DNA of 56,577 nt from a virus (taxonomy: Duplodnaviria > Caudoviricetes). Below are positions 15,096 through 38,773 of the stretch, in pieces. The stretch is from the IMG/VR virus record IMGVR_UViG_3300027759_000111, positions 1-56,577 of that record; one strand, 5' to 3'. The position numbers and the translations under genes were made by a program. How positions within the stretch are numbered: position 1 is the first letter of the stretch; each line of letters starts with the position of its first letter. The notes beneath the pieces were generated by a model. It searched no databases. It had not been told where the DNA came from and saw only the letters and a program-made list of their open reading frames with translations.

Positions 15096-15096
15096 T

Positions 15097-15675: not shown

Positions 15676-15680
15676 AAGAC

Positions 15681-15688
15681 TATTTATA
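15681..15688 (-). promoter_or_regulatory. T4-type late promoter TATAAATA
   Basis: Exact motif 5 nt upstream of the ATG at 15675. Confidence 0.7.
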
Positions 15689-15739
15689 AGCTTTTTAGGA
15701 CGTATATATATACCATAGATTATATTAAAAAAAGGAATT

Positions 15740-16324
15740 ATGGAATATCATTGGTGGTTAAGTGAAACTATTTTAGAACCTTATGTAATAGGTGAAAAAG
15801 TGTTTAATGATGAAGAAATACAAAAAATAATTAAAATAGGAAAAAATGAAAAATTTAGTACTTTTGAAGAACCTTTAATAAACGGTAAAGAAAAAGACAT
15901 ATCAACCAGAAATTGTTTTTTATCTTTTTTAAGATCAGACATAGATGACAATAAATGGATTTTTAGAAGAATAACGGATTATATAGTTAATATCAATGAA
16001 CAATTTTATAATTATAATATAGAATATATTGAAAATTTACAATTTACAGAATATAAAAGTCCAGGACATTTTTACGGAAAACACGTAGACTTACAATATA
16101 AAAGTTCTAAAACTAGAAAAATAAGTTTCTCAATTCAACTTTCAGACGATAACGAATATGAAGGAGGAGATTTAATTTTGAATACAGGTAAAGAAATAAA
16201 AGCGAAAAGAAATAAAGGTTTTATTAATATTTTTCCTAGTTATGTATTACACGAAGTAACGCCAGTAACTAAAGGTATGAGATATAGCTTAGTAGGTTGG
16301 ATTTTAGGCCCTAGTTTTAAATAA
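15740..16324 (+). CDS. PKHD-type Fe(II)/2OG hydroxylase
   Basis: LQFTEY, YGKHVD, RKISFSIQLS, YEGGDL, IFPSYVLHEVTPVTKGMRYSLVGW; AAGGA SD. Confidence 0.9.
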   Translation: MEYHWWLSETILEPYVIGEKVFNDEEIQKIIKIGKNEKFSTFEEPLINGKEKDISTRNCFLSFLRSDIDDNKWIFRRITDYIVNINEQFYNYNIEYIENLQFTEYKSPGHFYGKHVDLQYKSSKTRKISFSIQLSDDNEYEGGDLILNTGKEIKAKRNKGFINIFPSYVLHEVTPVTKGMRYSLVGWILGPSFK

Positions 16325-25753: not shown

Positions 25754-25761
25754 TATTTATA
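25754..25761 (-). promoter_or_regulatory. T4-type late promoter TATAAATA
   Basis: Exact motif at the end of the radical SAM operon, upstream of the resuming structural genes. Confidence 0.7.
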
Positions 25762-26155
25762 TTAAAAATTCAGACGTATAATACTTTTTAATATCCAACA
25801 CAATGCCTTTGTTTTCATTTAGTGGAAAAACTCTTTTTATTATATTATCGTAAACTTCTCTATCATTATCGTATGTTTTAAAATAAGGGTCGTTGTTAAA
25901 TAGTAAGTCTTTATCTCTTAATAATTCATAAAAATTCTCATTAAAATCTTTAGATAACCAGTATGCATAACAAATAGCTACAACATAACTTTTTGCAGGA
26001 TATACGAAACCCAAATCTTTATCATTAAAATATTTTACAGCTGTTTCCACCACATCACTCGAATATTCAATATGAAGTTTATTAAGGTCATCATCATGTT
26101 CTGTATTTGTTTTATGATATAATTCTTGTCTAATTTTCCATTCTTTTTTTATCAT
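25757..26155 (-). CDS. hypothetical protein, last gene of the radical SAM operon
   Basis: 132 aa; ATGA-coupled; YPAKSYVVAICYA and NDPYF look like conserved blocks. Confidence 0.7.
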   Translation of the reverse strand: MIKKEWKIRQELYHKTNTEHDDDLNKLHIEYSSDVVETAVKYFNDKDLGFVYPAKSYVVAICYAYWLSKDFNENFYELLRDKDLLFNNDPYFKTYDNDREVYDNIIKRVFPLNENKGIVLDIKKYYTSEFLI

Positions 26156-26781
26156 ATTTTTATTTTATTAATAGGATCATTATAAGATAACGATATTTCA
26201 GAAATATGTGCGCTATTATTATTATCAAACACATCAATAATACATTTGACCCATTGTTCAGGAGTATGACCATACATAAATTTTTCATCTTTTATTTTTA
26301 TATTCAATAAAGGTTTTAATTCTTCAGAAGAATAATATTCTTCCATATTTTTAATTATATTTTCATTTTTAATTGAAATGTGACCAGGATTTAATAATGT
26401 TACCATAGGCCACATTGATTTTGAATTTAATACTTTAGTTATTTTATTTAGAAACCTTTTTTGCATAACATATTCTAAATCATCTCCATTATTTTCATTA
26501 TTTAAGTTGAATGGATTATAACTGCCTATGTTCCAAATATGTTTTTTTAAACCTTTCCATTTTTTCCACACTTCATAAAACAAATCTATTTGTGCATAAT
26601 TTGAATGTGCATTATTAATAAACATATCGCAAGGTTCAATAATATTAGATATTTCTATTACATTGTTTATATCCTTACCTTCACTTTTACTAATTCCAAT
26701 AATTTCGTGACCTCTAATTTTTAATATATTTGAAAAAGCCTTTCCTATTCCTTTCGTGTGTCCTGTTATTGCAATTTTCAT
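26152..26781 (-). CDS. short-chain dehydrogenase/reductase
   Basis: ITGHTKGIG Rossmann motif, FINNA, NIGS, YVMQK (YxxxK). Confidence 0.85.
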   Translation of the reverse strand: MKIAITGHTKGIGKAFSNILKIRGHEIIGISKSEGKDINNVIEISNIIEPCDMFINNAHSNYAQIDLFYEVWKKWKGLKKHIWNIGSYNPFNLNNENNGDDLEYVMQKRFLNKITKVLNSKSMWPMVTLLNPGHISIKNENIIKNMEEYYSSEELKPLLNIKIKDEKFMYGHTPEQWVKCIIDVFDNNNSAHISEISLSYNDPINKIKI

Positions 26782-27503
26782 ATTTTATCCTCGTAATCTT
26801 TTATATTATTTTTAATATATTCTGTAAGTTTTTTAGTGAAATAATTTCTAAATTTGTAAACCACAAAGTAATATGGATACTGAAAAATATATTTTAGAAT
26901 ACCTAAAAAAGTAAAATTAGTTTCTGGTAATGACGCTATACGTATTTGCATTAAATAATATTCAGTATAATCTCTTAAAAACATAGCATTATAATGTTTT
27001 ACAAAATCTTCTTCAGTAATTTTACCTGATAGTTTAATAAATTCTTGCACAGATAATTTTTTTTCTTTTATTTCTTTATAATTATATGTAACATTGTGCC
27101 CATGCCAAGCTTGATTTTTTTTATCTGATATTCTAAAGTTTAATGGTAATTTAGATTTTAAAATATTTTTTTTAAAATTATTTAATTGTTCCATAGTATT
27201 AAAAGCAATAGTAACATATCTAAATTTTCTATCAGAATGTCCCTCACAACTAGAACAGGTTAAATAACCTTTATTAATTAATAAGATTACCAAATCAAAA
27301 ACTCCAGGATCAATATTTTCACCTATAAAAGGATTATATGGACTTACATGACTACTAACATATTCACCATCTTTGTCAATATATTCGTAAGGTCTTCCAT
27401 CTTTTGTTTTAAATTTGTTAGAATGTTTAAACAAAGCGTAATTTAATATTTCTTCATTATCATCAATTGCAACTTTTGTATTAGTTTTATATTCTTTGTT
27501 CAT
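26778..27503 (-). CDS. hypothetical protein with TxxSCxGH motif
   Basis: IDPG...LINKGYLTCSSCEGH; coupled within the operon. Confidence 0.6.
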   Translation of the reverse strand: MNKEYKTNTKVAIDDNEEILNYALFKHSNKFKTKDGRPYEYIDKDGEYVSSHVSPYNPFIGENIDPGVFDLVILLINKGYLTCSSCEGHSDRKFRYVTIAFNTMEQLNNFKKNILKSKLPLNFRISDKKNQAWHGHNVTYNYKEIKEKKLSVQEFIKLSGKITEEDFVKHYNAMFLRDYTEYYLMQIRIASLPETNFTFLGILKYIFQYPYYFVVYKFRNYFTKKLTEYIKNNIKDYEDKI

Positions 27504-28407
27504 AGTAATCTAGCAATCCTTTATATCCGTTGCAACTGTTTGTTAAATCTTTAACATAACGGTAATGCTCTGTTAAACAATGGCCATAATATTTACACTT
27601 TTTACATATATCTGAAACATTATTAATAGGTTCTTGTTCTGCCCATTTTATATATTCTTTAATTGAATTTAATTCTAAAAAATATTCTTTATCATCTTTA
27701 TTAAATTCTAAAACAGCAAAGTTACCATTTGGTGTTATATACACGTGGTTGTTTGAAAATGCATTATAATTTTTATTTAAACTTTCTATAATTTTGCCTT
27801 CATTTATAAAATCAAATTTTTTTGTAACTGAACTTTCAATCCATTTTTTTACAAACAATTCAAAATCTTTATGTGTGATAGGATGTGCATTAGCCTGATT
27901 TATTGAATATGGCTTAATCTCAACACTTTCTATACTAGAACACAAATTTAATTTGTTTATCATATCATCTACGTTCATCTCTATAACCTTTTGACTTGCA
28001 AGTATTAACACCGCTATTGGAACAGTGCTTTGAAACATATTATTATAAACCAAATCAGATTTTTCTCTAGCTTCAAAATCATAACTTATACTTAAATAAA
28101 AGTCATTTTCAAAAAATCCTTCATGCAACATAGAATAGTTTGTTATTATATTTATCTTGTCTTTATAGTATTTTCTTATAACATTTTTTATCCCATAGAA
28201 ATAATCTTTTTTTAAAGCACCTATTTCGCCGCCATATAAATCTACCCAATCAATCTTTCTTACTTCACTAATTTCTTTAAGTCTTTGATTGAGTATTGCT
28301 AGTGGTATTTTTTTTTGATCTCCTAATTGTTCAGGTGTAAGATAACAAAAATTGCATCTAAAATTACAAAAATAACTTGGATTTATAGAAACAGTTATAC
28401 TATTCAT
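27487..28407 (-). CDS. radical SAM protein with partial SPASM-like domain
   Basis: CNFRCNFC (CxxxCxxC), LYGGE, C-terminal CKKCKYYGHCLTEH...SC. Confidence 0.9.
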   Translation of the reverse strand: MNSITVSINPSYFCNFRCNFCYLTPEQLGDQKKIPLAILNQRLKEISEVRKIDWVDLYGGEIGALKKDYFYGIKNVIRKYYKDKINIITNYSMLHEGFFENDFYLSISYDFEAREKSDLVYNNMFQSTVPIAVLILASQKVIEMNVDDMINKLNLCSSIESVEIKPYSINQANAHPITHKDFELFVKKWIESSVTKKFDFINEGKIIESLNKNYNAFSNNHVYITPNGNFAVLEFNKDDKEYFLELNSIKEYIKWAEQEPINNVSDICKKCKYYGHCLTEHYRYVKDLTNSCNGYKGLLDYYEQRI

Positions 28408-28409
28408 TT

Positions 28410-29105
28410 TTATGCGTTATTATCTTCAAAAATCAAATCAACAGGCATAGATATTCTTAGTTTTCCAAAAAATAATTCTACACCATGATAAACAAAACTA
28501 GGAAACAATACTACATCTCCGGTTTTAGGTTCTAGTCTTTTGTCATCAAACATTTTTGAAAAGTTTGCATTAATTTGATACCCCCTATTTGCATTTCCTC
28601 TAGGATCTCTAACACTTAAAGCACCTCCTAAATTTTCATTTTCATTTAATAAATAAAATACAGCACTCAAATGAGAGCCCGAATGATTATGTTCAGGCAT
28701 AGCGTAACCTTCTTTAAATGTAACACCAGATCCATTCAACCAAGATTTTAAAAAATATTTTTCTTTTTTTAAATCTATATTTAGCTGTTCTTTTAAATAT
28801 TTTTCAAATACAGGAATAACTTCCTTTTCTTTAAATTCGTTAAAAAAACTATCATCTAATAAATTTTTTTCACTTCTTATTTTTAAGTCTTTATCAAAAG
28901 TATAACCATTTGTAGCAATCGCACCACTCTTATCAGTTGTTTCAGTTAGATAATTAGTTATAACATGATTTACAACTTTTTCTAATAAGACTTTATCTTG
29001 AATTTTTGTTATTAAAATTGGTGTTGGCCAACAATAATTATAACCTTCATCAAAACTATATTTTTTATTAGTTTGTTTGTTTATTGATAAATTTGAAAAT
29101 GTCAT
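28410..29105 (-). CDS. putative Fe(II)/2OG oxygenase (TIGR02466-like)
   Basis: WPTPI, SWLN, EHNHSGSHLSAVFY, DPRG, LFPSFVYHGV, RIS. Confidence 0.85.
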   Translation of the reverse strand: MTFSNLSINKQTNKKYSFDEGYNYCWPTPILITKIQDKVLLEKVVNHVITNYLTETTDKSGAIATNGYTFDKDLKIRSEKNLLDDSFFNEFKEKEVIPVFEKYLKEQLNIDLKKEKYFLKSWLNGSGVTFKEGYAMPEHNHSGSHLSAVFYLLNENENLGGALSVRDPRGNANRGYQINANFSKMFDDKRLEPKTGDVVLFPSFVYHGVELFFGKLRISMPVDLIFEDNNA

Positions 29106-29626
29106 ATATTAGTTAAATTTTTATTTACAAAATAATGAAAACTTGCAACCTTTCTAGGCATTTTAATTTTCAATGGTGTTACCATGTGTTCAAATTGTTC
29201 ACTTTGATTCATTATAATAATATCATGTTGTTTAGGATAATAAGAATTAATTAATTCTTTTGTTTTTGTATTTCTAAATTGAATTGCACCACCTATATCT
29301 TCATCCATCGTATCAAAATACATTAAAACACAAAGATTAGATACTATAATCATGTCATTATGCCATTCTAAAGTTGCTTTATCCATACCATTTACCAAAT
29401 CAATTTTTTCTGAAATTTTATAGTTGTTATCTATTTCTTTTACATATTTTTTTGCCAAATATGTTTGCGTTTCTACTAATTGATTTTTTAATTCTTGATC
29501 TTTTATTGCAACAGATAATCCTATGCAGCCTGGATCTGACCATTGTACATTATGTATATCTATATATTTAAATGCGTTACTGTCATTTAAATATATATGT
29601 CCTTTTGACAAAAAATTATCTATCAT
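29102..29626 (-). CDS. Fe(II)/2OG oxygenase
   Basis: WHND (HxD), LMYFD, GGAIQF, FEHMV, RKV. Confidence 0.8.
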   Translation of the reverse strand: MIDNFLSKGHIYLNDSNAFKYIDIHNVQWSDPGCIGLSVAIKDQELKNQLVETQTYLAKKYVKEIDNNYKISEKIDLVNGMDKATLEWHNDMIIVSNLCVLMYFDTMDEDIGGAIQFRNTKTKELINSYYPKQHDIIIMNQSEQFEHMVTPLKIKMPRKVASFHYFVNKNLTNI

Positions 29627-30713
29627 TTACACTTTCATTTATATAAGGTGTTACTTCTATATTTAGTCCGTTAGATTTAAGTATATCTGGAGCAATTGAT
29701 TTCATTAACTTACAGTGCTCCTCTACCATATTATGCTGTTTTAAATCTTTAATTGTTTTTCTGCAACCATTACATATCTCAAACATAGGACAAGTAAAAC
29801 AGGCCTTCTTCATACTAATAAAATTAATATCATCTTGTAATGGTGTAAAAAACTCACCTTTCATTTCTTTATCAAAATTTATTGATTTATCTTTATCATC
29901 ACCAAACGAACCACAAGAATAATAATCTCCACTAGGATTTAATGCACGAATACCACTATCACATTTACGATTTTGAGGACATGATGTTCTTCCACCAATT
30001 AATCTTTGTATCATTTGCCTTGTATTAAATTCCCAAGGCGTAAGTCCACGTTTCCATATTTCTACATAGATTTGGTATATCTTACTTAGTAAGTAGGGCT
30101 TACCTTGTTCTCCACTTGCCATTGCATAGTTTAATTTACACTCAACACCTATTTTACTGTTACGTGAAAAATTATGTAATGTTCCATCTGGTTTAACATC
30201 TTCACTCATTCGTTTGGCTAACTCTACGTTTTTAATTGCATCTTTTTCATTTTCAGGTACAATAACAGATATAAAATCTGGTCTATAACCACAGTGTTCT
30301 AACATAGTATCAGAACACTTCCAAAAATCTTCTTCTGTAAATTCTGAATAATCTCCTTTAAGACGGCCACCACCATATTGAAAAGAAGTTGTTACACCTA
30401 TTCTTTCGTTATTAAATAAAGACTTCCATTTTTTGGGTTTTATATAAAAAGGCCATAAATTAGTAGTTAGAGCTATAGAAGTTTTATAATCGTGTTCGTC
30501 TAACCAGTTTATAATTTTCCAATAATAATCTGGTTTCATCATTAAAGGGTCGCCACCATTGACTATAATGGTTTTTGTATTAGGAAATCTTTTTAAAAAT
30601 GTAAATATTTGTTCGTGTGATAATACATCTTTTTTATGTTCTGCTATTTTAGTACTCGAACAAAAACTACATTTAAAATTACATAGTTCCGTTGGTTTTA
30701 TAATTAAATCCAT
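29616..30713 (-). CDS. radical SAM/SPASM protein
   Basis: KPTELCNFKCSFC, NGGDPL, CPQNRKC...GDYYSC, CFTCPMFEICNGC. Confidence 0.92.
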   Translation of the reverse strand: MDLIIKPTELCNFKCSFCSSTKIAEHKKDVLSHEQIFTFLKRFPNTKTIIVNGGDPLMMKPDYYWKIINWLDEHDYKTSIALTTNLWPFYIKPKKWKSLFNNERIGVTTSFQYGGGRLKGDYSEFTEEDFWKCSDTMLEHCGYRPDFISVIVPENEKDAIKNVELAKRMSEDVKPDGTLHNFSRNSKIGVECKLNYAMASGEQGKPYLLSKIYQIYVEIWKRGLTPWEFNTRQMIQRLIGGRTSCPQNRKCDSGIRALNPSGDYYSCGSFGDDKDKSINFDKEMKGEFFTPLQDDINFISMKKACFTCPMFEICNGCRKTIKDLKQHNMVEEHCKLMKSIAPDILKSNGLNIEVTPYINESVNDR

Positions 30714-31282
30714 TTCAATTCTTTATCAGTAGGAGCTTCAACATTCCACCCAAAAACCAATGTTGTTCTTGGTTTTTCGCCAAAATAAGGTTTTACACGG
30801 TGAACAAGAAATCCTGGAAAAATAATCAATCTATTTTGTTTAGGTAACACATTTATTGTGTTAGATGGATATTCTGCAAAAGTTAAATTTTTATATATGG
30901 TTAATTCGCCACCTACCCAATCAACACCATTAAAAGAAGAGTCTATATAATAGATAGCCGTAATGTATGAACGTTCCACCATATCGTGATGAGGTTCATA
31001 TAAATGATTGTAGACCATTTTTTCATCATATTTTTTTAAACGGCCTTTTTGTAAATTACTAAAATTAAGAGAATTAAAATCTATATTATTTTCAGCGCAA
31101 TAATTTATAAATGTAACATTTACTATTTCATATAATTTTTGTTGACTTTCTGAAAAACTATCTTGACCGGCAATAGTTTTATCTATTAAAGATTCTTTTT
31201 TTAACCTTTCTATTAAGTTTACATCATCTATATAATCATCATAAACACAAACAGGTTCGTTTATAAATTTTAATATTTTCAT
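30704..31282 (-). CDS. Fe(II)/2OG oxygenase
   Basis: PHHD, AIYY, WVGGEL, NRLIIFPGFLVHRV, RTT. Confidence 0.85.
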   Translation of the reverse strand: MKILKFINEPVCVYDDYIDDVNLIERLKKESLIDKTIAGQDSFSESQQKLYEIVNVTFINYCAENNIDFNSLNFSNLQKGRLKKYDEKMVYNHLYEPHHDMVERSYITAIYYIDSSFNGVDWVGGELTIYKNLTFAEYPSNTINVLPKQNRLIIFPGFLVHRVKPYFGEKPRTTLVFGWNVEAPTDKELKWI

Positions 31283-31293
31283 TTTTAAATAAA

Positions 31294-31938
31294 TTATTCT
31301 ATTTTATATCTAAACCCAAACGTATACCTAACTTTATCCCCAGCAGAAATTACTTGATGATGAATTAAAGGATTTGAGTTATTAATAACAACAAACGTTG
31401 AATCTATTGGATAGTGTGTATGCGTTAATTTAACAGAACCATCTTCTTGTTCTACACCAATATTTAATTGACCACCCCAATTTTCATTCCATTCTTTATG
31501 GTCGTTTATATAAACTAACACAAAAAAATCTGACGTATCGCTAACATCATTGTGCATCTTAATATCTAATTGTTTATCCCACAATCCCATACTCAAAGGT
31601 TTGATATTTCTAATACTTCTATATTTTATATGCTGTATTTTAACCAAAGAATCTTTTAGTGTATCAAAAAATTTCATATCAATAATAGAGTTAGCTAAAT
31701 TTTTAACTTTTGTTGGAGACTTACCATAACTCATTTTACATCTTAAAAGCTCTTCATAAAATTCTTCATTTTTTTCAATTTCAGGAGTTACTGCCCAATT
31801 TGCAAATCTTGGTTTATCGCCGTACCAATCTGTATTGATAATAATATCATTTGCTTCTTTTCGTATTTCTTGGGGTAAAATTCCAACATTATATCCTTCA
31901 GTGTAGAATTTAAATTTATTAAACTTCAAATCAATCAT
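31294..31938 (-). CDS. Fe(II)/2OG oxygenase
   Basis: MHND, LVYIN, WNENWGGQL, HHQV, RYTF. Confidence 0.82.
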   Translation of the reverse strand: MIDLKFNKFKFYTEGYNVGILPQEIRKEANDIIINTDWYGDKPRFANWAVTPEIEKNEEFYEELLRCKMSYGKSPTKVKNLANSIIDMKFFDTLKDSLVKIQHIKYRSIRNIKPLSMGLWDKQLDIKMHNDVSDTSDFFVLVYINDHKEWNENWGGQLNIGVEQEDGSVKLTHTHYPIDSTFVVINNSNPLIHHQVISAGDKVRYTFGFRYKIE

Positions 31939-31947
31939 ATTGCTAAA

Positions 31948-31955
31948 TATTTATA
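31948..31955 (-). promoter_or_regulatory. internal T4-type late promoter TATAAATA
   Basis: Exact motif in the 42-nt gap, the largest in the radical SAM operon. Confidence 0.65.
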
Positions 31956-31980
31956 TAGACCTTAAAACACAATTTTAAAT

Positions 31981-32556
31981 TTAACTTAACCTTCTTATCC
32001 AATAATTACCTTTTCTTTTAAAGTTAAATTGTTGCATCAACTCTCTATGATATGGTTCATGTTGTATTTTTTTTTGATTCATAGCTAAATGCAGATATTC
32101 AAAATAAGAACCGGCTGGAACTATTATTTTTTTATCACCAAACATATAAATTATATCCGACCACATTTTTCTTAACAGATTTCTAACTTCTTTAATAGGT
32201 TTGATTTTTAAAACTCCAGAATATTTAATGCCCCCTATTATAATCTCATCATTATAAATGTGTATCATTGCAATACCTTTTTCTAATTTCCAATTTTCTT
32301 TACAAGTTATCCATTGTTCTTCATTTTTATTTTTCAATGTTTGTTCATAGATGTCTGGATCAGTTTCTTTAGTTCCCCACCAAATAAACATATGTGCTTG
32401 TCTAGGACTAATTCTTGGTATAAAAGGATGTTTTAATGGTAACGTATCTAATACTACATCAACATTTTTAGGTAAATTTATGTTAACGAGCGATGTATCC
32501 TCTTGATACTCGTACATCTTCGATATATCTGTGCGTAAGTTTATAGACACACTCAT
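31981..32556 (-). CDS. hypothetical protein
   Basis: 191 aa ORF overlapping the end of the upstream radical SAM gene; true start may be the internal MYEY. Confidence 0.65.
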   Translation of the reverse strand: MSVSINLRTDISKMYEYQEDTSLVNINLPKNVDVVLDTLPLKHPFIPRISPRQAHMFIWWGTKETDPDIYEQTLKNKNEEQWITCKENWKLEKGIAMIHIYNDEIIIGGIKYSGVLKIKPIKEVRNLLRKMWSDIIYMFGDKKIIVPAGSYFEYLHLAMNQKKIQHEPYHRELMQQFNFKRKGNYWIRRLS

Positions 32557-33529
32557 TTAACTCCTCTCTATACTTATAATCATGATTCATAAAACAACCT
32601 AAGGTACATCTTTCTAAAAACTCACAAGAAACACAATTGTATTTTTCTAAAAATTTATTTTCTATTATAGAGTTATCTCTAGGCTTAATTGGTGATTTAT
32701 ACATACTTAAAGATTTCGTGTCTTGCACTAAATTACCGCATAAACATAAAGTTCCATCTGCTAAAACTAACTTACTTACTCTACAAGAAGAATAATTTTT
32801 TTTGTTAAAAATCCAATCTTTAATTGGGTGAACGTTAGGATATTTGTCAACACAATACTTAAAAAATTTTAAAAGCAATTCATCACTTGGCATATTAAAT
32901 TTTGCGTGTTCATCAGGCATATAATAATCAAAATAAATATATTTGCCATTATTATATAAGTAATCAAAATATTCATCGCCTTCTTTTAAATAATATTCTA
33001 TATTAGGTTTTGTAAGTAAACAAGAAAAACAAGTAACTCTATTACCAAAATAATCTACATTTTTTTTAAAAATTTCAAATTGTTTAGGATTAAAACGACC
33101 TCTAGGATCGTATGATGTTGTTATTCTAGCTGATATATTGTTGTCTTTAGAATACTTTAATAAATCTTCTATTAAATCAAGTTTATCTGTTACTAGATTT
33201 GTAACCCAATTTAAAGAACAAGTTTTTTTATATTTTTCTGATATTTTTTGTATACCTATCGACAGCTGTTTATATGCTTCGTTTAATTCTTTAGTGTAAA
33301 TAGTGGGAGCAAAAACTTCACCTCCCATTAAATTTAAAGTAACTTTATTTTTATTTTCTTTACTTATAAATTTTTCAATAGGTTCCAGTTTATTTAAAAC
33401 CGTGTCTAAACCTATTTTATCTTGGTGATTTTGCCAACAAAAAGAACAACTTAAATTACAAAATTCAAATAAATGTATAGTATATTCCTGCTCAGGATCT
33501 CTTTTAGGATCAATTAAAAATTCACGCAT
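32483..33529 (-). CDS. radical SAM/SPASM protein
   Basis: CNLSCSFC, MGGE, SC...DGTLCLC, CVSCEFLERCTLGC (Cx2Cx5Cx3C). Confidence 0.92.
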   Translation of the reverse strand: MREFLIDPKRDPEQEYTIHLFEFCNLSCSFCWQNHQDKIGLDTVLNKLEPIEKFISKENKNKVTLNLMGGEVFAPTIYTKELNEAYKQLSIGIQKISEKYKKTCSLNWVTNLVTDKLDLIEDLLKYSKDNNISARITTSYDPRGRFNPKQFEIFKKNVDYFGNRVTCFSCLLTKPNIEYYLKEGDEYFDYLYNNGKYIYFDYYMPDEHAKFNMPSDELLLKFFKYCVDKYPNVHPIKDWIFNKKNYSSCRVSKLVLADGTLCLCGNLVQDTKSLSMYKSPIKPRDNSIIENKFLEKYNCVSCEFLERCTLGCFMNHDYKYREELNECVYKLTHRYIEDVRVSRGYIAR

Positions 33530-33538
33530 ATCAAAATA

Positions 33539-34657
33539 TTATAATAATTTAAATTTGGATAATTCTTCTATATTATTTTCTTTCTTTAAATTTATAATAT
33601 AATGCACAAAAACGTAATTTGTGTTTTTAAAATCAAATTTAGGAATCAGTAGGGTATCACTAGGATGTTCTATTAATAAATTTAACAAAGAATCTAATTC
33701 AGACTTTGTAATTTCATCCTTTGTAACATATTCTAAAAAATCAAAGATGGCAAAATTGTTTTGGTCAATATCTATACCTTCAATATCTTTATATATTTTT
33801 AAAAATAAGTTTCTTAAACCATCAATTTGTTCTTGCGTTAAATTTTTAAAATTCAAATAATTACGATTATCTGATTTTAATTTATCCGTTGGCCATATTG
33901 TTTCATCTGAATAATATTTTAAAGATTCAATATTTTTAATAGGATTAATATTGTAAAAATCTATATTAGATTCTGTATAATTTAAAACTGATTGAAAATT
34001 TCTATTAAGTAAATTAAATAACACCATTTCTTTACTATCTCTTAATATTTCTAAAAACCATCTTTTTAAAAAAACAAGTATTGTGAATTTTAGTGATTGT
34101 AAATTTTTTACGGAATTGCTAAAATAATCAGCCAATAAAAATTCAATTGAATAATTTAACTCAAATGATTTAATTTTTTCTATTTCGGTTTGGCTAATAA
34201 CAGTATTGTTAAATATAGTATCAACATTTTCAAATAGATAATCAGAACTCCAAAAAGCATTATCATTCTTAATTGTTATATCATCACCTTCAGAATTAAC
34301 AAAATTCATTCTTTCTTTGAATACAAATAATTTTATATAGTTTTTATAACTTTCTAAAGTTAAATTAGGTAATATTAATTTTAACCATTTAGTTAAAAAC
34401 TTGCAATAATTAGTTTTATCGCAATATATAATAGTTTTATTATTTGAAGATTTTGAATGATCGTATATTTTTTGAATTAAATCTGTAAAGCTAATATCAT
34501 CAATATTTTTTTCAAAATGTATTAACTCTCCTTTATTAATTTGTTTATATAAATCTAATAGAGGAACACCTTTAATTTCCGATATTACAACACGATCAAA
34601 ACTTGAATTTATAACATCATCAAATTCTAAATATGATTTATTAAATAAATGAAACAT
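33539..34657 (-). CDS. hypothetical protein in the radical SAM operon
   Basis: 372 aa, coupled; no clear motif. Confidence 0.7.
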   Translation of the reverse strand: MFHLFNKSYLEFDDVINSSFDRVVISEIKGVPLLDLYKQINKGELIHFEKNIDDISFTDLIQKIYDHSKSSNNKTIIYCDKTNYCKFLTKWLKLILPNLTLESYKNYIKLFVFKERMNFVNSEGDDITIKNDNAFWSSDYLFENVDTIFNNTVISQTEIEKIKSFELNYSIEFLLADYFSNSVKNLQSLKFTILVFLKRWFLEILRDSKEMVLFNLLNRNFQSVLNYTESNIDFYNINPIKNIESLKYYSDETIWPTDKLKSDNRNYLNFKNLTQEQIDGLRNLFLKIYKDIEGIDIDQNNFAIFDFLEYVTKDEITKSELDSLLNLLIEHPSDTLLIPKFDFKNTNYVFVHYIINLKKENNIEELSKFKLL

Positions 34658-35336
34658 TTTTTATAATTTCTTTGTCGTTATTTCTAGCATTTATATATTC
34701 TTTACCTTTTCCGTCTACTATATTCCAAGTTAATAAAAACATTGGGTTATTTTCGTTACTCCAATATGAAAATAAATTTTTACCTCTAAACATATAATCT
34801 TCAAAGTAACGTGTATAGAATTTAACTATATCATTATTTATGTTTTTAAAAAATAAGTAAAATCTTTCATGTTTTAATAAACTAACAAAATTTATGCCAT
34901 CTAGGCTATTAGTATCATCTTTTGGAAATGATTTTGCATAATCTTTAAATTCATCAGAATTTACACTGTAAAGATTAAAAATTGATAAACTTTCTAATTT
35001 TTCTCTCCACTTAGATATTATATCTTTGTTTTCATCTATAAAATTTTTATATTTATTTTCTTTAGATATATTTTTAAATTCAAAAAGTATATCAATAACA
35101 ATATTTTCTAGTGAACTTATATTAAGTAAACTAATACTATGTAAATATTCTTTTACTAATTCTAAATCTGGATTTTTTATATCTGTTGGCAAATCTAGGT
35201 TACTTAAATACGTTAAAAATTTTTTTCCTTTTAAACCACTACCTTGATAATCTATTGCATAAGATACTTCTTTATCTGTAAAATATTTTTTTAAATTTTC
35301 TATTGATATAGGTACTGTTGTTTCAATTATTTTCAT
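34641..35336 (-). CDS. hypothetical protein directly downstream of the CHxS-repeat gene
   Basis: 231 aa; TAATG-coupled; FLTYLSNLD, GINFVSLL and MFRGKNLFSYW blocks. Confidence 0.7.
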   Translation of the reverse strand: MKIIETTVPISIENLKKYFTDKEVSYAIDYQGSGLKGKKFLTYLSNLDLPTDIKNPDLELVKEYLHSISLLNISSLENIVIDILFEFKNISKENKYKNFIDENKDIISKWREKLESLSIFNLYSVNSDEFKDYAKSFPKDDTNSLDGINFVSLLKHERFYLFFKNINNDIVKFYTRYFEDYMFRGKNLFSYWSNENNPMFLLTWNIVDGKGKEYINARNNDKEIIKNVSFI

Positions 35337-35878
35337 TATCTTCTACCTCGTGAACTGTGGCAAGAACTATGACAGCTTGTGTGGCAAACATCTATTGTTG
35401 TAGTCACAGTATTACTTCTTAGAGTTGTATATTCTGTAGCCAAATTACCAAAATAAGTTTCTAAATTAGAAGATGATATAGTTTGTGTAGCATCTACACT
35501 TGCACTATTAATTGCACCTAATGTTTGTCTATTACTAGTGGCCATATGAGCAACGTTTGTTGCATCAAAAATAACTCCACTTCCTAAAAGATTTTTTATT
35601 GCTCTTTGTAATCTAATATTTGTATATAAAGCAGTTTCAGTTTCTAATACTGTTTTTATTGTACTAGCGGTAATAGCATTTCCTGCGCTACCTATTGTTG
35701 CACCTGTCGCTGTAACTGTTGCACCGGCCGTTGTACCAGCATATGTTGCATCTGGCATTTCTGCAAAAGGTTTACTGTCTGTACCGTAAACAATACCTGT
35801 GTTAGCAACGTCAGTTACTAGGTCTTTAAATCTATCCACTATATTTTGTGGTGTAACTGGATTAGTTAATGTTACCAT
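35336..35878 (-). CDS. Thr/Ala-rich virion-like protein with C-terminal (CHxS)3-RGRR motif; candidate radical SAM substrate
   Basis: Ends DVCHTSCHSSCHSSRGRR; all 3 Cys lie in this tail; coupled directly behind a radical SAM/SPASM gene. Confidence 0.7.
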   Translation of the reverse strand: MVTLTNPVTPQNIVDRFKDLVTDVANTGIVYGTDSKPFAEMPDATYAGTTAGATVTATGATIGSAGNAITASTIKTVLETETALYTNIRLQRAIKNLLGSGVIFDATNVAHMATSNRQTLGAINSASVDATQTISSSNLETYFGNLATEYTTLRSNTVTTTIDVCHTSCHSSCHSSRGRR

Positions 35879-36899
35879 ATTGTATATTTTTCTTTAACTC
35901 TTTCATTAAACTCTTTGGTGCGCCACATATATCTCCTTGCCAAGCAAGTTGGTGGCAATCACCTCCACAAAACTCAAAAACTTCACAAGAAAAACATATA
36001 GGGTTTCTTGCACGTTCACAAGCGATGTTTTCTATTCGCACAGGACTATTTATAACACTTTTAATATCGTCTTTTATGTGTCCAAATTGAAATTCTGGAG
36101 CTGAATTTGGACAACCTGATATAGTACCATCTGCATTTATTGTAAATATTTTTTGTTCACAATCTCTACAAAAAGTACCACCTTTTAAAAAACCTGTTTC
36201 AAATTTACTATATATTACTTCTAAAGTATCATTACCAAACCAATCTCTACAATTAAATTCTTCAGACTGGTGGTGCATTTTCAAAAACCACTTATCTTGT
36301 TCTATATTATCAGGAAATATTTCAGGATGTAATTTTGCATTTCCGTTACCTGTTAATCTTTCAAAGGACACTTCTTGTACACCCAATTGTTTTACCCATT
36401 TTAATAATTCAATGGGTTCCATAGCAATAGTATCTTTTGTTACACTGATAAATAATCGAATCGTTGCACCTTTAGACAACAAATCTTTTACATTTTTTTC
36501 CCACAAATTATATTGGCCAGCTGTTTCAAATCTAATTTTAGGATCCCAACTTGTTCCTATACGATTGTTTAATGTGTATTTTATAAAATCATAATGCTCT
36601 TGTTTTAATTTCAATACTAAATTTGTTGTAATACCAAATGACCTATTCTTCCATAAATCTTTACATTCATCATACAATTTTTGCATATGAGATACTGGTG
36701 CTAAAAATGGTTCCCCACCATGAAACTCAAAATGAATTGAATCATCTTTATCGTTAAAATAATTTCTAAATCTTTTTATAAAATCAATAGTTTTAAAAGG
36801 ATCAAAGTAAATCTTTTTACCATTTATACCACTTGTGAAACAATGTTTACAGTTAAGTTGACAAGTTTCTGTAGTTTTTATATAAAACATCCATCTCAT
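35862..36899 (-). CDS. radical SAM/SPASM maturase (start revised to 36899)
   Basis: KTTETCQLNCKHC, FHGGEP, CRDC...DGTISGC, CFSCEVFEFCGGDC; ATGA overlap with the upstream stop. Confidence 0.93.
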   Translation of the reverse strand: MRWMFYIKTTETCQLNCKHCFTSGINGKKIYFDPFKTIDFIKRFRNYFNDKDDSIHFEFHGGEPFLAPVSHMQKLYDECKDLWKNRSFGITTNLVLKLKQEHYDFIKYTLNNRIGTSWDPKIRFETAGQYNLWEKNVKDLLSKGATIRLFISVTKDTIAMEPIELLKWVKQLGVQEVSFERLTGNGNAKLHPEIFPDNIEQDKWFLKMHHQSEEFNCRDWFGNDTLEVIYSKFETGFLKGGTFCRDCEQKIFTINADGTISGCPNSAPEFQFGHIKDDIKSVINSPVRIENIACERARNPICFSCEVFEFCGGDCHQLAWQGDICGAPKSLMKELKKNIQYGNIN

Positions 36900-37348
36900 T
36901 GTGTATATCCTATACTTAAAGCCCAAGTAAATGGTAAACTATCAACTTTATGTTTTGCTCCTTTAGGTATTGATATAGATTGTCCTTCTTTTATTAAAAT
37001 AGGATAGTTTTCCGTATATATTTTTTTACTACCTTTTATAACACATAACAACACATCTATATCGTCTGTATGTTCAGGAAAAGAAAATCCACCAAATTGA
37101 TTGTAAAAAAGATGAACATTTTTTGTTTTAAAATTTAAATTATAATCTTTCAACAATTGAAGATGATAGTTATTATCTTCTAATCCTTCAATTTTTATGT
37201 GTGAAATAGTTTTATATGTTTTTATCCAATCACCGTAAGTCATTTGTTCTTTAACTCTATAGTCGTTACCTTTTTTATCTATATAGATTATTTGATTATT
37301 TTGGTATCTTGTGAAGGATATTAATTCATCATTTAAAGCATTAATCAT
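36896..37348 (-). CDS. JmjC/cupin-like oxygenase
   Basis: HLF...SFPEHTDDIDV...GSKK...IPKGAKHKV (HxD...H) resembles cupin_4/JmjC. Confidence 0.75.
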   Translation of the reverse strand: MINALNDELISFTRYQNNQIIYIDKKGNDYRVKEQMTYGDWIKTYKTISHIKIEGLEDNNYHLQLLKDYNLNFKTKNVHLFYNQFGGFSFPEHTDDIDVLLCVIKGSKKIYTENYPILIKEGQSISIPKGAKHKVDSLPFTWALSIGYTQ

Positions 37349-37368
37349 ACTGTAATATTTATTACAGT
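37349..37368 (-). promoter_or_regulatory. 8-bp inverted repeat overlapping a variant late promoter (AATAAATA)
   Basis: ACTGTAAT-attt-ATTACAGT directly upstream of the first ATG of the operon. Confidence 0.45.
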
Positions 37369-37372
37369 GGAA

Positions 37373-38773
37373 TTATAGTATAATTGCCTCAATAAGGCCG
37401 TTTTCATTATCTTCTAACGCTATTGCAAATACTTTATTAAATTCTATGCTAATCGTTGTTGCAAAACCTCCGTTGCCTGCAACTAATTCATCACCTTTTT
37501 TAATGGGTCCTACAACTTTTACTTTAACACGGCCTTTTAGTGCTATTGGTTGGCCTGTACCTTTTGCGTTCATTAAAAAAGCAGGTCTATCAGATATAAC
37601 ACCTATCGCTTTATTACCTACAAAACATTCAGTAACTTCTTTATTACCGCCTACCATAACAACTGTACCAATATCATAAATTTTATCTGTTTCATAGATT
37701 TCGGCTAAATCGGCATATTGTGCTTGTGTAGCTGTCGTTGAAAGAACATTAGTTGAAGGATTATAAGTTAAACTTGTGTCAGTTTTTAACGCCTGGTTAC
37801 CTGTTGCAGTACCAGCAAACGTTAAAAAGTTTGCAGTATTAGTTGTGTCATCAGCAGTCAATGTAACTGTAGAAGCAATAGATGAAGTTCCTGTTATAGT
37901 TGAAGCAACTAAAGTATTTACTGTTAATGTATCTCCTGATAAATTTAATTTTGCAGCTCTTATAGTTGTGTCTGCAATATCTTCATTTATAATTGTACCA
38001 TTGGCAATCATTGTACTTGTAACTGTGCCTGTATCTCCAGTTGTTATAATTGTACCTGTGATATTTGGTATGGTAATTGTTCTATCTGCTGTTGGATCAA
38101 CAACAACTAAAGTTGTTTCAAAAGCATCATTCGTTGAACCTTCAAATATAATTCCTACTGAGCCTGTTAAAAGCAAATCAGTACCTTGTATTGTGCTTGT
38201 TCCCGTAATTGTAGTGCCTGATACTGCTCCTGAAAAAGCTCCTGTTGTTCCTGAAATTCCTGTACCTGCTATAGTTCCTGCTGATATGATAGAAGAAGCA
38301 TTTATAACTCCAACTACAGTCAAAGGATCATTTATTGTAACTAAAGAAGTGTTTGTTGATCTAATAGTATTACCGCTAATTTCAATAGTACCTAATGTAT
38401 GTAAAGCACCTCCTGCAGTAATATTTCCAGATGTAGCTGTAAAATTACCAGGAATAGTTACGTTACTAGTCAATGCTAATGTTAAAGTATCGGTTGCACT
38501 TACAACTGCTGTAATTTGATTTGAAGTGCCTCTTACGTCTAAAATTTGACCTGCACCTATAGCTTGAATTGTTGAACTTGAATCTCTAATTGTCCAACCT
38601 GCAGCAGAAAAGGCAACGCCGGCTATTTCTACAACCGCACCCACAATAGAAGTGGATGAAAGACCAGCACCTGCAAGTAATGATGGATTACCAAAATCAG
38701 TTTGAGTTAAAGTGTTTAACTTAACTCGCATCTGTTCTAGTGTATCAGTGGTATTGATTACTGTAAATGCCAT
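37373..38773 (-). CDS. tail fibre protein with conserved C-terminal domain
   Basis: TDTLEQMRVKLN N-terminus, Thr/Gly-rich shaft, YADLAEIY...GTVV...PAFLMN...ALKGRVKVKV C-terminal domain. Confidence 0.75.
   Translation of the reverse strand: MAFTVINTTDTLEQMRVKLNTLTQTDFGNPSLLAGAGLSSTSIVGAVVEIAGVAFSAAGWTIRDSSSTIQAIGAGQILDVRGTSNQITAVVSATDTLTLALTSNVTIPGNFTATSGNITAGGALHTLGTIEISGNTIRSTNTSLVTINDPLTVVGVINASSIISAGTIAGTGISGTTGAFSGAVSGTTITGTSTIQGTDLLLTGSVGIIFEGSTNDAFETTLVVVDPTADRTITIPNITGTIITTGDTGTVTSTMIANGTIINEDIADTTIRAAKLNLSGDTLTVNTLVASTITGTSSIASTVTLTADDTTNTANFLTFAGTATGNQALKTDTSLTYNPSTNVLSTTATQAQYADLAEIYETDKIYDIGTVVMVGGNKEVTECFVGNKAIGVISDRPAFLMNAKGTGQPIALKGRVKVKVVGPIKKGDELVAGNGGFATTISIEFNKVFAIALEDNENGLIEAIIL

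Follow-up and report, generated by a model that had tools for sequence, protein, structure and literature searches.

Organization of the module

The window, by which we mean the whole 56,577-nucleotide stretch of DNA analyzed here, comes from a T4-like phage (IMG/VR record IMGVR_UViG_3300027759_000111) and holds a module of 16 head-to-tail ORFs, all on the minus strand, that runs from position 37348 down to position 25757. Eleven of the 15 junctions between these ORFs overlap, by 1 to 74 nt. The module encodes four CxxxCxxC radical SAM (rSAM) proteins, four 2OG-Fe(II) oxygenases, a cupin with an HxD...H motif, a weak SDR, five unknowns, and a 180-aa protein that we term the CH-tail protein. 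The first-pass annotation of this DNA had recognized the co-oriented rSAM/oxygenase cluster, which our coordinates confirm, but it counted 15 genes where its own list sums to 16. Domains were called with Pfam and NCBIfam profiles and their family cut-offs, and the homolog counts given for each gene were taken over 84 other loci.

PF04055 (Radical_SAM) matches all four rSAM genes at 26 to 34 bits, two above the cut-off of 29.5 and two just below it, and each protein carries CxxxCxxC near its N terminus, as the earlier annotation had noticed. SPASM-type Cys motifs are found in three of the four. Only rSAM-A (35862..36926, minus strand; 354 aa, with a start that is possibly an internal ATG; homologs in 83/84 loci) exceeds the SPASM cut-offs (PF13186, 24.0 vs 21.5 bits; TIGR04085, 34.4 vs 27). 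rSAM-B (32483..33529, minus strand; 348 aa; 68/84 loci) bears a C-terminal CX2CX5CX3C, rSAM-C (29616..30713, minus strand; 365 aa; 70/84 loci) has a SPASM-like C terminus, and rSAM-D (27487..28407, minus strand; 306 aa; 66/84 loci) retains a reduced C-terminal Cys cluster. Among the four, conservation is strongest for rSAM-C, which shares 49 to 63% identity with jumbo-phage homologs; rSAM-A is 41 to 51% identical to its homologs in 12 jumbo phages.

The nearest curated families of rSAM-A are PapB (56 bits), TIGR04083 (47), DynA (42), anSME (42), HxsB (41), and the CXXX-repeat family (38), all of them peptide or protein maturases, and the alignment of its profile to anSME 4k37 runs from one end to the other (model positions 13 to 319). 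The proposed likeness to peptide- and protein-modifying SPASM enzymes therefore stands. Every module rSAM nevertheless scores far below every cut-off of the curated maturase families, so that the assignment of a substrate class rests on resemblance. The rSAM core begins within about 20 residues of the N terminus, and neither Pfam nor NCBIfam detected a RiPP recognition element (RRE).

The first gene of the module encodes the cupin (36896..37348, minus strand; 150 aa; 78/84 loci), a probable Fe/2OG oxygenase of the JmjC type. Its Pfam matches are weak and below cut-off (Cupin_2, 21.0 bits; JmjC_2, 17.5), but H93, D95, and H133 of the HxD...H motif are invariant in 26 homologs and the ortholog at locus L101 passes JmjC_2 (36.8 vs 22). 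Two of the four predicted Fe/2OG oxygenases are above their Pfam cut-offs: a PF13759 protein (28410..29105, minus strand; 231 aa; 49.4 bits; 46/84 loci) and a P4H-like PF13640 protein (30704..31282, minus strand; 192 aa; 34.6 bits; 20/84 loci). The other two are oxygenase-like proteins just below the cut-off of 27, one of 174 aa (29102..29626, minus strand; 26.3 bits; 50/84 loci) and an accessory one of 214 aa (31294..31938, minus strand; 24.3 bits; 6/84 loci).

Three core proteins, u231 (34641..35336, minus strand; 231 aa; phrog_20767; 64/84 loci), u372 (33539..34657, minus strand; 372 aa; 52/84 loci), and u132 (25757..26155, minus strand; phrog_20737; 54/84 loci), the last module gene and one also present in Bdellovibrionota, are without a recognizable fold or family; the model of u231 is confident (pLDDT 83) and found no fold match. 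The remaining genes are accessory: u191 (31981..32556, minus strand; 22/84 loci), the TxxSCxGH protein u241 (26778..27503, minus strand; 20/84 loci), in which C86 and H89 are invariant in nine homologs, and the SDR-like Rossmann protein (26152..26781, minus strand; 0/84 loci), whose gene is skipped in RNA-library contigs of relatives. The TxxSCxGH protein reported earlier is thus real; the SDR, at 15.9 bits against a cut-off of 26.6, is a weak assignment. Among the module proteins no transporter or peptidase family was matched in Pfam or NCBIfam, in agreement with the first reading.

The G+C content of the module is low (0.25 vs 0.33), GC3 is 0.10 to 0.25 in module and flanks alike, and the low value accordingly reflects amino-acid composition. 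At 0.355, the G+C of the CH-tail gene is that of the flanking fiber genes. A second island, rich in oxygenases and halogenases, lies at 9480-16324.

The late-promoter motif TATAAATA occurs 17 times in the window, against 17.7 copies expected by chance; 15 of the 17 are on the coding strand, and 12 of these 15 lie 8 to 25 nt upstream of a start codon when coordinates are compared with ORF starts. As had been described, a variant stands at the start of the module and other copies inside it: AATAAATA, a late-promoter-like sequence with one mismatch (37356..37363, minus strand), lies 7 nt before the cupin start, and TATAAATA is found within rSAM-A, some 170 nt ahead of the CH-tail gene (36047..36054, minus strand), just upstream of the oxygenase-like ORF starting at 31938 (31948-31955), and at the final gene of the module, roughly 15 nt ahead of the gene that follows (25754-25761). 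From these motif positions, with a total count equal to chance, the module may be expressed late.

The CH-tail protein

The CH-tail protein (35336..35878, minus strand) ends in CHTSCHSSCHSSRGRR. Codons 165 to 180 (35339..35386, minus strand) spell three C-H-x-S units followed by R-G-R-R and the stop. In 30 aligned CH-tail proteins C165, H166, C169, H170, C173, H174, R177, R179, and R180 are invariant, while identity is otherwise 27 to 69%. Clustering at 50% identity gave 807 clusters, and of their best 150 representatives 139 carry this ending; the fourth-position Ser of the three repeats is kept in 130, 111, and 127 of 141. Bacterial homologs carry two to four CH units per tail.

An AF2 model predicts a folded body (pLDDT 89.7, pTM 0.81) from which a flexible, low-confidence tail is exposed. 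The body contains conserved N-terminal and internal motifs and accepts insertions of 17 to 96 residues at four sites; a structural search with the model gave no fold match, and no signal or peptidoglycan-binding domain was found. One of the cluster representatives is a fusion of the CH-tail protein with a Pfam Gly_rich_2 domain. The CH-tail gene, with a homolog in 66/84 loci, overlaps the end of rSAM-A by 17 nt in the window, and in 59/65 loci the CH ORF starts no more than 100 nt from where the rSAM-A ORF ends.

Conservation and fiber linkage

A search of IMG/VR yielded 168 relatives, from which 80 loci were kept, and tblastn with rSAM-A returned 15 records representing 12 cultured jumbo phages. 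The core, comprising the cupin, rSAM-A, the CH-tail protein, u231, u372, rSAM-B, rSAM-C, rSAM-D, and u132, is inherited together and recurs in the 80 IMG/VR loci, the 12 jumbo phages, and chromosomal loci of Bdellovibrionota, accompanied by 2OG-Fe(II) oxygenases in variable number. Its order is kept in T4-like contigs, in three jumbo-phage lineages, and in Bdellovibrionota, and the same gene order is found in Burkholderia phage SURPRISE13 (loci L001 and L003), Agrobacterium phage Atu_ph07 (L002), and Pseudomonas phage pPa_SNUABM_DT01 (L004). The Bdellovibrionota loci are flanked by genes for NusB, NrdR, Fab proteins, SHMT, CarAB, LepA, and MetK; the module, described at first as phage encoded, is therefore not exclusive to phages. 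It is a conserved gene set rather than a chance island, which upholds the earlier view of a single functional module.

The pattern CH..CH..CH..R.RR closes a protein at its extreme C terminus in 65/84 loci. The 19 loci without it comprise 4 contigs cut inside the CH gene, L003, which continues L001, and 14 rearranged contigs that we call type B. Eight type-B contigs were searched beyond the fetched flank: in five of them a tandem pair of CH-tail genes lies a short way outside it, and the three negative ones are fragments of 9.5 to 15 kb. Every locus of sufficient length to show the tail has it, and the search for clusters lacking this proposed constant partner failed to refute the proposal.

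The embedding of the module among fiber genes, also remarked on in the first-pass annotation, is borne out well beyond the window. Immediately upstream of the module lies a gene for a fiber-like protein, fib466, with a C-terminal Peptidase_G2/IMC-type domain (37373..38773, minus strand), and a fib466 homolog with an IMC-type C terminus ends no more than 1.5 kb upstream of rSAM-A in 57/83 loci. The CH genes of type-B contigs come straight after a fiber gene that matches Peptidase_G2. Four of five Bdellovibrionota genomes have one of their few (two to four) Peptidase_S74 genes at most about 5 kb from the module, so that fiber genes with self-cleaving chaperone domains adjoin it both there and in marine-type phages; in genome G004 housekeeping genes stand between the module and the S74 gene. 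In three jumbo phages the fiber-like genes upstream of the module gave no match to Pfam IMC. For the jumbo phage FLC6, the available part of its description (PMC8066314) gives an annotation-based list of 16 presumed structural proteins that includes gp68 and not gp72. By gene order, with the cupin as gp70 and an rSAM as gp71, gp72 should be the tail protein.

Proposed function and alternatives

We propose that the module is a protein-maturation system that acts on the CH tail and is tied to fiber or adhesin function, a reading to which comparison of the sequences leads us to assign a probability of roughly 0.55. The CH tail would be the substrate of the module enzymes: the rSAMs would abstract hydrogen atoms from tail residues to give crosslinks, or oxidized Cys or Ser, and the cupin and P4H-like oxygenases would add hydroxylations. 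Because the rSAMs have no recognizable N-terminal recognition domain, at least one of the unknown proteins may act as a docking partner. The matured protein would work with trimeric fibers bearing self-cleaving chaperone domains, namely tail fibers in phages and fiber adhesins in predatory Bdellovibrionota; given these two settings, it would serve to recognize or enter a Gram-negative host or prey cell. One tension is that rSAM enzymes are oxygen sensitive whereas 2OG oxygenases need O2, which bears on when and where each chemistry would take place. The interpretation given in the first-pass annotation is partly supported.

Three Cys and three His could also simply be a ligand set for a metal or an Fe-S cluster, which counts against maturation. 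The tail would then be a cofactor site, such as a carrier for the four Fe-S enzymes or a metal site at the tip of a trimeric fiber, and the rSAMs and oxygenases would have another target, for example the neighboring fiber protein, a small molecule, or a glycan of the cell surface. Repeated His motifs bind metal ions in T4 fiber tips, the only invariant side chains of the tail (Cys, His, and Arg) are typical ligands, the number of CH units varies in bacterial homologs, and in marine-type loci the fiber gene is as constant a neighbor as the tail gene. T4-like marine viral genomes with many rSAM genes and Fe-S assembly genes are also on record in the available part of PMC5332604. We nevertheless regard a cofactor site as unlikely: a gene as tightly coupled to rSAM-A as that of the CH tail usually marks a precursor paired with its enzyme, the strongly kept Ser is not a ligand, the tail sits at the extreme C terminus before a fixed RxRR in the manner of C-terminal core peptides, and an Fe-S carrier is not expected to tolerate the body insertions. 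More doubtful still is a classical RiPP or peptide-derived cofactor pathway, in which the body of about 165 aa would be an unusually long leader and the 16-residue core, once modified, would be cleaved from it to yield a small product such as a metallophore, toxin, or redox cofactor. An invariant C-terminal core behind a variable body, RiPP maturases as the best NCBIfam matches, and the resemblance of multiple rSAMs, oxygenases, and an SDR-like gene to the extensive tailoring seen in PQQ- or mycofactocin-type pathways would fit. Against it, neither the window nor the conserved core shows a peptidase, exporter, or immunity gene, the body is modeled with confidence as a folded domain that has conserved motifs, unlike a disordered leader, none of the 84 other loci has the SDR, and the constant fiber-gene linkage is left without explanation.

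Enzymes that act on nucleotides, DNA, or tRNA, in viperin-like or thymidine-hypermodification reactions with the tail protein incidental, would account for the weak viperin likeness of all four rSAMs (NCBIfam, 22 to 32 bits; PADLOC pVip, 30 to 35 bits, the rSAM-D match spanning 9-222 of 257). Phage rSAMs that act on DNA do exist, but the companions of thymidine hypermodification named in the available part of that report (kinase, aGPT-Pplase, and PLP enzyme; PMC8989533) are absent here. The viperin-type scores fall far short of the cut-off of 180 and reflect the generic rSAM core, SPASM-type motifs and full-length anSME similarity point to peptide or protein substrates, and the module lies in structural and not replication blocks and also on chromosomes beside fiber genes; we judge this explanation very improbable. 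A hypervariable island of unrelated auxiliary genes without a common function is hardly credible. The deviating G+C of the region, the second island, and the coming and going of the SDR, u241, u191, and some oxygenases would suit it, but it is already contradicted by the synteny of the core across T4-like contigs, jumbo phages, and Bdellovibrionota, and GC3 matches that of the flanks.

Comparison with known systems

[quoted passage not shown] As far as that text describes HXS, both systems combine a folded protein bearing tandem, basic-residue-rich His-x-Ser units with more than one rSAM and small partners of unknown fold; in the module each unit is C-H-x-S, with RxRR at the end of the tail. 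HXS, however, serves bacterial defense, and its HxsA, which is processed N-terminally for export, combines five repeats with a peptidoglycan-binding domain. The module has three repeats with an invariant Cys in each at the extreme C terminus, four rSAMs plus oxygenases, and phages and predators as carriers, beside fiber genes. Tests for membership of the HXS families fail (HxsB, 41 bits vs 370; HxsC, 29 vs 268), and NCBIfam gave no match to HxsA or HxsD in the module. The literature searched held no description of the module, in line with the earlier annotation, and it is apparently undescribed to date.

Like rSAM-A, anSME (4k37) is an rSAM/SPASM enzyme of about 350 to 370 aa without an N-terminal recognition domain, and it acts on Cys or Ser of a protein. 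The sulfatase motif is C-x-P-x-R, and the last tail repeat, C-H-x-S-R, has the same Cys...Arg spacing. The module differs in having no sulfatase, no Pro in the motif, and four different rSAMs instead of one, and TIGR03942 scores are 42 to 43 bits vs a cut-off of 349. PapB ranthipeptide and CteB/SCIFF systems and the uncharacterized CXXX-repeat maturase family (TIGR04115) have in common with the module Cys-rich repeat cores with i/i+4 spacing as substrates; PapB is the best NCBIfam match of rSAM-A over its full length, and CteB (5wgg) is among its best PDB matches. The module rSAMs lie far below the cut-offs of PapB (340) and TIGR04115 (350), and we found no paper linking a CXXX repeat with radical SAM for the latter family. 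Thioether-forming SPASM maturases, unlike the module, pair short leader-bearing peptide substrates with RRE-bearing enzymes, and we know of none from phage structural regions. S74/G2 fibers are not known to depend on rSAM enzymes. The constant neighbors of the module share their self-cleaving chaperone domains with phage tail fibers and with the Bdellovibrio MAT fiber adhesins, whose description, in its available part, makes no mention of radical SAM (PMC10769870).

The cupin invites comparison with the JmjC-type ribosomal oxygenases of the MINA53 family (JmjC_2). The window cupin is shorter, at only 150 aa, and its best PDB matches are generic Cupin_2 proteins, but it shares the HxD...H cupin and matches MINA53, a histidyl hydroxylase according to its PDB entry, at an E value of 0.017; the invariant residues of the tail include His and Arg.

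A fixed gene set among the structural genes of a T4-like phage

The window carries the structural region of a T4-like myovirus (PHROG matches to portal, tube, sheath, terminase, neck, baseplate wedge, and tail fibres, all on the minus strand), and within it 16 co-oriented ORFs at 25757-37348 form a module flanked by a fibre-like gene (37373-38773) and by small structural-type genes from 25739 downwards. Eleven of the 15 ORF junctions overlap. Read along the minus strand in the direction of transcription, the module encodes a cupin (150 aa); the radical SAM protein rSAM-A (354 aa); the CH-tail protein (180 aa), named for its Cys-His C-terminus; u231 and u372, which like the other unknowns are named by length; rSAM-B (32483-33529, 348 aa); u191 (31981-32556); two 2OG oxygenases (31294-31938 and 30704-31282, 214 and 192 aa); rSAM-C (365 aa); two more 2OG oxygenases (29102-29626 and 28410-29105, 174 and 231 aa); rSAM-D (306 aa); u241, with a TxxSCxGH motif; a weak SDR-like protein; and u132. 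As called, u191 shares 74 nt with the end of rSAM-B, which makes a real start further downstream probable. The first-pass annotation had counted 15 genes where we find 16; Pfam and NCBIfam back its enzyme assignments, some with scores just below cut-off, and the low G+C of the module is confirmed (0.24-0.28 versus ~0.33). Since GC3 (0.10-0.25) is as low in the flanks as in the module and the G+C of the CH-tail gene (0.355) is that of the fibre genes, the gap reflects amino-acid composition, and foreign DNA as its source is rejected on GC3. Megablast searches of the phage collection with the module and with the neighboring 6-kb gene found nothing.

The gene set is fixed and co-inherited across phages. 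A tblastn search with rSAM-A recovered proteins of 41-51% identity in 15 records, representing 12 jumbo phages of Agrobacterium, Sinorhizobium, Ralstonia, Burkholderia, and Pseudomonas. The three of these that we examined share one order (cupin, rSAM-A, a 178-296-aa protein, a u231 homologue, a u372-sized protein, rSAM-B, rSAM-C, rSAM-D, 2OG oxygenases, and a u132 homologue), and each has a fibre- or baseplate-type gene upstream. The jumbo-phage papers, in their available portions, list the module genes merely as accessory (PMC11898562, PMC8066314, PMC5468394), and the FLC6 annotation list, as available, omits gp72, the expected tail protein by gene order (PMC8066314). In IMG/VR, 168 stretches encode an rSAM-A relative; we kept the best 80 of these and added four phage-record loci, for 84 in all. 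Homologues at E<=1e-5 were found in 83 loci for rSAM-A, 78 for the cupin, 70 for rSAM-C, 68 for rSAM-B, 66 each for rSAM-D and the CH-tail protein, 64 for u231, 60 for the upstream fibre-like gene, 54 for u132, 52 for u372, 50 and 46 for the 174- and 231-aa oxygenases, 22 for u191, 20 each for u241 and the 192-aa oxygenase, 6 for the 214-aa oxygenase, and 0 for the SDR-like protein, all lower bounds because contig ends cut many loci. These counts define a core of cupin, rSAM-A, CH-tail protein, u231, u372, rSAM-B, rSAM-C, rSAM-D, and u132; the SDR-like protein, u241, u191, and the particular oxygenase set are accessory. In the Burkholderia jumbo phage SURPRISE13, two genes annotated as dihydrofolate reductase (13421-14598 of locus L001) lie inside the module, between rSAM-B and rSAM-C.

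The invariant tail and its coupling to rSAM-A

The tail is invariant, and its gene is tightly coupled to that of rSAM-A. Wherever the tail motif was found (65 of 84 loci), the product right after rSAM-A ends in CH..CH..CH..R.RR followed by the stop codon, and in 59 of these 65 its ORF starts less than 100 nt from the end of the rSAM-A ORF. The first-pass annotation had asked whether a Cys/His-repeat gene always accompanies the rSAMs, and we searched the 84 loci for the opposing case of clusters that commonly lack it. That case was not borne out. The 19 loci without the motif comprise four contigs that end within the N-terminal part of the gene, locus L003, which only continues L001, and 14 rearranged loci of type B (order oxygenase, cupin, rSAM-A, rSAM-C, rSAM-D, u132). 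Whole contigs were searched for eight of the 14: five of these have a tandem pair of tail genes (125 and 131 aa, ending ...ICHxSCHYSCHGSRGRR), and the three negatives are fragments of 9.5-15 kb. The tandem genes lie directly 3' of a fibre gene with a Peptidase_G2 match and are followed by a 353-360-aa ORF, u372-like by size and position only, and then by a u231-like gene. In type-B locus L077 (13234-19986, minus strand, and the contig beyond), a divergent block of six further rSAM genes, namely five with CxxxCxxC and then rSAM-B, lies beyond two tandem CH-tail genes; this block fits a remark, in the available part of its source, that a marine T4-like genome has 12 rSAM genes (PMC5332604).

An alignment of 30 tail proteins (27-69% identity to that of the window) has invariant columns at C165, H166, C169, H170, C173, H174, R177, R179, and R180, and the top-residue fraction is 0.89 in the tail versus 0.50-0.62 in the body, where four sites tolerate insertions of 17-96 residues. 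A profile search of 1.84 billion representatives of clusters at 50% identity returned 807 at E<=0.001, 498 of them at <=1e-10. Among the best 150 of the 807, 139 end with exactly three CH units and RxRR, two match with one unit, and nine deviate through an extra Gly, truncation, or an altered end. For the three units in turn, the fourth residue is Ser in 130, 111, and 127 of 141, so that the unit is C-H-x-S, an HxS repeat preceded by a fixed Cys. Among the 8000 candidates that it scored, a word-index search listed 434 proteins, and all 120 shown of the 434 are unnamed or "hypothetical." The jumbo-phage tail homologues were found through the ORF following rSAM-A and a small local BLAST; a tblastn search of phages with the 180-aa protein had returned nothing at E 1e-5.

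For residues 1-165, AlphaFold2 run on the alignment of tail proteins predicts an alpha/beta domain with confidence (mean pLDDT 89.7, pTM 0.81), from whose last strand the tail departs with low confidence (block mean 54). No fold relative was found by Foldseek against the PDB at E<=0.001; the best VIA-align Z against 48,161 chains was 4.2, a PDB sequence profile search found nothing, and no Pfam or NCBIfam family matched the protein, nor Pfam its longer variants. A complex prediction for rSAM-A with the tail protein scored 0.01, which speaks neither for nor against interaction. Two variant architectures were seen: a 453-aa cluster representative (P0160) has a Pfam Gly_rich_2 domain (43 bits) fused ahead of a complete CH-tail protein, and in four loci (L024-L027) the tail protein is apparently split, ~900 nt after rSAM-A, into an N-terminal-like ORF and a separate 140-aa ORF with the remainder and the tail.

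The enzymes and their partners

Judged by their profiles, the enzymes resemble protein and peptide maturases. All four radical SAM proteins have CxxxCxxC; two PF04055 scores are above the cut-off of 29.5 (34.4 and 30.1) and two just below it (27.3 and 26.2). rSAM-A alone exceeds the SPASM cut-offs (PF13186, 24.0 versus 21.5; TIGR04085, 34.4 versus 27). rSAM-C (23.3) and rSAM-B (17.1) fall below 27 for TIGR04085 and keep the CX2CX5CX2-3C motifs in their sequences, and rSAM-D has a reduced C-terminal Cys motif. The profile of rSAM-A, which has a full SPASM motif, can be aligned over its entire length to 4k37, the structure of an anaerobic sulfatase maturase, and over its N-terminal half to the thioether maturase 5wgg. 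Its NCBIfam matches are peptide or protein maturases throughout, at 38-56 bits versus cut-offs of 300-450; it is a member of none of these families. The ranthipeptide maturase PapB (NF047865, cut-off 340) is matched over its full length at 56.2 bits. rSAM-A and rSAM-C score 42-43 bits against anaerobic sulfatase maturase (TIGR03942, cut-off 349), whose sulfatase substrate has no gene in the module by Pfam. The CXXX-repeat peptide maturase (TIGR04115, cut-off 350) reaches 38.2 bits, and the C-x3 spacing of its target is a likeness in substrate pattern only. All four rSAMs match phrog_1802, yet BLAST separates them into four orthologous groups across phages. PADLOC gave generic viperin and 2OG matches only.

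Two oxygenases belong to the 2OG-Fe(II) superfamily by Pfam (2OG-FeII_Oxy_3/4/5, cut-off 27; 28410-29105, 49.4; 30704-31282, 34.6), and those at 29102-29626 (26.3) and 31294-31938 (24.3) score slightly under it; two of the oxygenases are P4H-like (PF13640). The cupin falls under the cut-offs in the window (JmjC_2, 17.5 versus 22; Cupin_2, 21.0 versus 27.2), its HxD...H triad is kept in 26 homologues, and a bacterial orthologue in locus L101 passes JmjC_2 (36.8). The SDR-like protein matches PF00106 at 15.9 bits versus 26.6, over the N-terminal Rossmann part only. The module also supplies three conserved proteins without a recognizable fold. u231 has a confident predicted fold (pLDDT 83), for which Foldseek against the PDB found no relative at E<=0.001 and VIA-align a best Z of 4.6 over 53 residues. 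PDB sequence profiles and the protein Atlas gave no informative match for u372 or u132, the Atlas returning only unnamed clusters for u132. PDB searches with profiles A1, A2, A3, and A6 gave nothing meaningful; the A6 matches to designed PPR proteins come from a low-complexity stretch of 20 residues.

Linkage to fibres in phages and predatory bacteria

Linkage to fibre genes recurs in two very different kinds of attacker. In 57 of 83 phage loci, no more than 1.5 kb lies between the end of an upstream-fibre homologue and the rSAM-A gene that follows it. The fibre of the window matches Pfam Peptidase_G2 (IMC autoproteolytic cleavage domain) over residues 310-403 at 23.7 bits, just below the cut-off of 25; Pfam on the upstream genes of the jumbo phages gave no families.

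Scanning one genome for each prokaryotic species turned up 15 loci. Three of them, from marine bins, are evidently on contigs of T4-like phages, another is on a contig in a Bacilli bin that has phage head genes, and ten lie in Bdellovibrionota MAGs (Bacteriovoracaceae, Pseudobdellovibrio). The latter ten have rSAM-A, CH tail, u231, rSAM-B, rSAM-C, rSAM-D, and u132, and their tails have 2-4 units and always end ...CH[GS]SRGRR. We made the viral-or-chromosomal call here from flanking genes, the terminase search being uninformative. Two loci studied in depth are chromosomal because housekeeping genes flank them: NusB, NrdR, 2-oxoacid dehydrogenase E1, SHMT, FabF/G/D/H, and alanine racemase in one, and PilD, CarAB, PyrB, signal peptidases, LepA, and MetK in the other. 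Genes for the Peptidase_S74 chaperone domain number only 2-4 per Bdellovibrionota genome (2.2-4.2 Mb), and in four of five genomes one lies within ~5 kb of the module, the fourth being counted on the assumption that contig C138 is the contig of locus L093. In one genome two S74 genes directly adjoin rSAM-A, one of them with a pilin-type N-terminal methylation motif. Such S74 fibres are described as the MAT adhesins of Bdellovibrio in a paper (PMC10769870) whose available text has 0 occurrences of "radical SAM." Bacterial tail variants (L103, L104, L097, and L105) have two or four CH units, a CN unit, or an RGWR ending (Methylococcales bin), and in a Pseudobdellovibrio locus (L101, 7138-8862) a 575-aa protein with a weak B12-binding domain match (25 bits, below cut-off) is encoded just ahead of the CH-tail gene.

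A possible offensive counterpart of the HXS defense

The closest described system is the bacterial antiphage system HXS, in which, according to the available part of its report, the rSAMs HxsB and HxsC with HxsD mature HxsA, a protein of five HxS repeats, with +8 Da on SHRSS, and matured HxsA blocks entry of phage DNA (PMC13128918). The module stands outside these families: rSAM-A scores 41.3 bits against HxsB (TIGR03978, cut-off 370), over the N-terminal part only, and rSAM-C 29.3 bits against HxsC (TIGR03977, cut-off 267.9). [quoted passage not shown] No description of the module or of the tail motif was found in the openly accessible full-text literature, the range of our search.

We propose that the rSAMs and oxygenases may modify the tail, that the unknowns could be docking or assembly partners, and that the product would act together with the fibres. 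Candidate chemistries are thioethers from Cys to backbone or side chain, His-Ser type crosslinks as suspected in HXS, and anSME-type Cys/Ser oxidation on the last unit (C-H-x-S-R). The main rival takes the same Cys3His3 tail as a ligand set that binds a metal or cluster, a reading that the invariant Cys, His, and Arg would fit; the coupling of the tail gene to rSAM-A points to modification. Less weight goes to the release of a RiPP or cofactor and to chemistry on nucleotides. The maturase profiles would suit a released peptide and sit less easily with nucleotide chemistry; no transporter or peptidase family matched in the module (Pfam, NCBIfam), as the first-pass annotation had said of transporters and leader peptidases.

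A bolder extension of this reading, to which we give a probability of roughly 15%, is that the module might build a chemically new, rSAM-crosslinked Cys/His/Ser "warhead" at the C-terminus of a fibre-associated protein, shared by several unrelated phage lineages and predatory Bdellovibrionota to recognize or breach Gram-negative envelopes, an offensive counterpart of the HXS defense with its rSAM-matured HxS repeats. If the proposed maturation reading is right, the module would represent an undescribed and widespread pathway by which phages and predators mature their attack machinery post-translationally; the tail protein alone falls into no fewer than 807 sequence clusters at 50% identity. 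The module would add four rSAM enzyme families that are new and whose 16-residue substrate is defined, invariant, and easily tested by mass spectrometry. It would also connect, in evolution, the tail fibres of phages with fibre adhesins of the Bdellovibrio type and with the HxS chemistry of an antiphage system, making the role of modified tails in cell entry directly testable.

Promoter-like motifs, RNA, and a second island

The motif TATAAATA occurs 17 times in the window versus 17.7 by chance. Fifteen of the 17 copies are on the coding strand, and 12 of these 15 lie 8-25 nt upstream of a start codon (coordinates read against ORF starts). In the module one copy stands ahead of 31938 and one ~170 nt ahead of the CH-tail gene, and AATAAATA, which differs from it by one mismatch, is found 7 nt upstream of the cupin start. 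Small shares of the window are present in 15 lake-water metatranscriptome runs; in the four runs mapped, RNA-library contigs 90-99% alike span the flanking structural genes and parts of the module, the tail gene included, and because genes cannot be ranked by contig depth and some DNA may have been carried over, they show neither expression level nor timing. RNA-library contigs from two lake-water runs join across 26139-27491 of the window, omitting the SDR-like gene and u241, so close relatives without these two accessory genes exist.

A second enzyme-rich, low-G+C island lies at 9480-16324 of the window, between the neck genes and the fibres. It contains a tryptophan-halogenase-like gene (13063-14553), two additional 2OG-Fe(II) oxygenases (12462-13061 and 15097-15675), and a ferredoxin-oxidoreductase-like gene (10582-11265).
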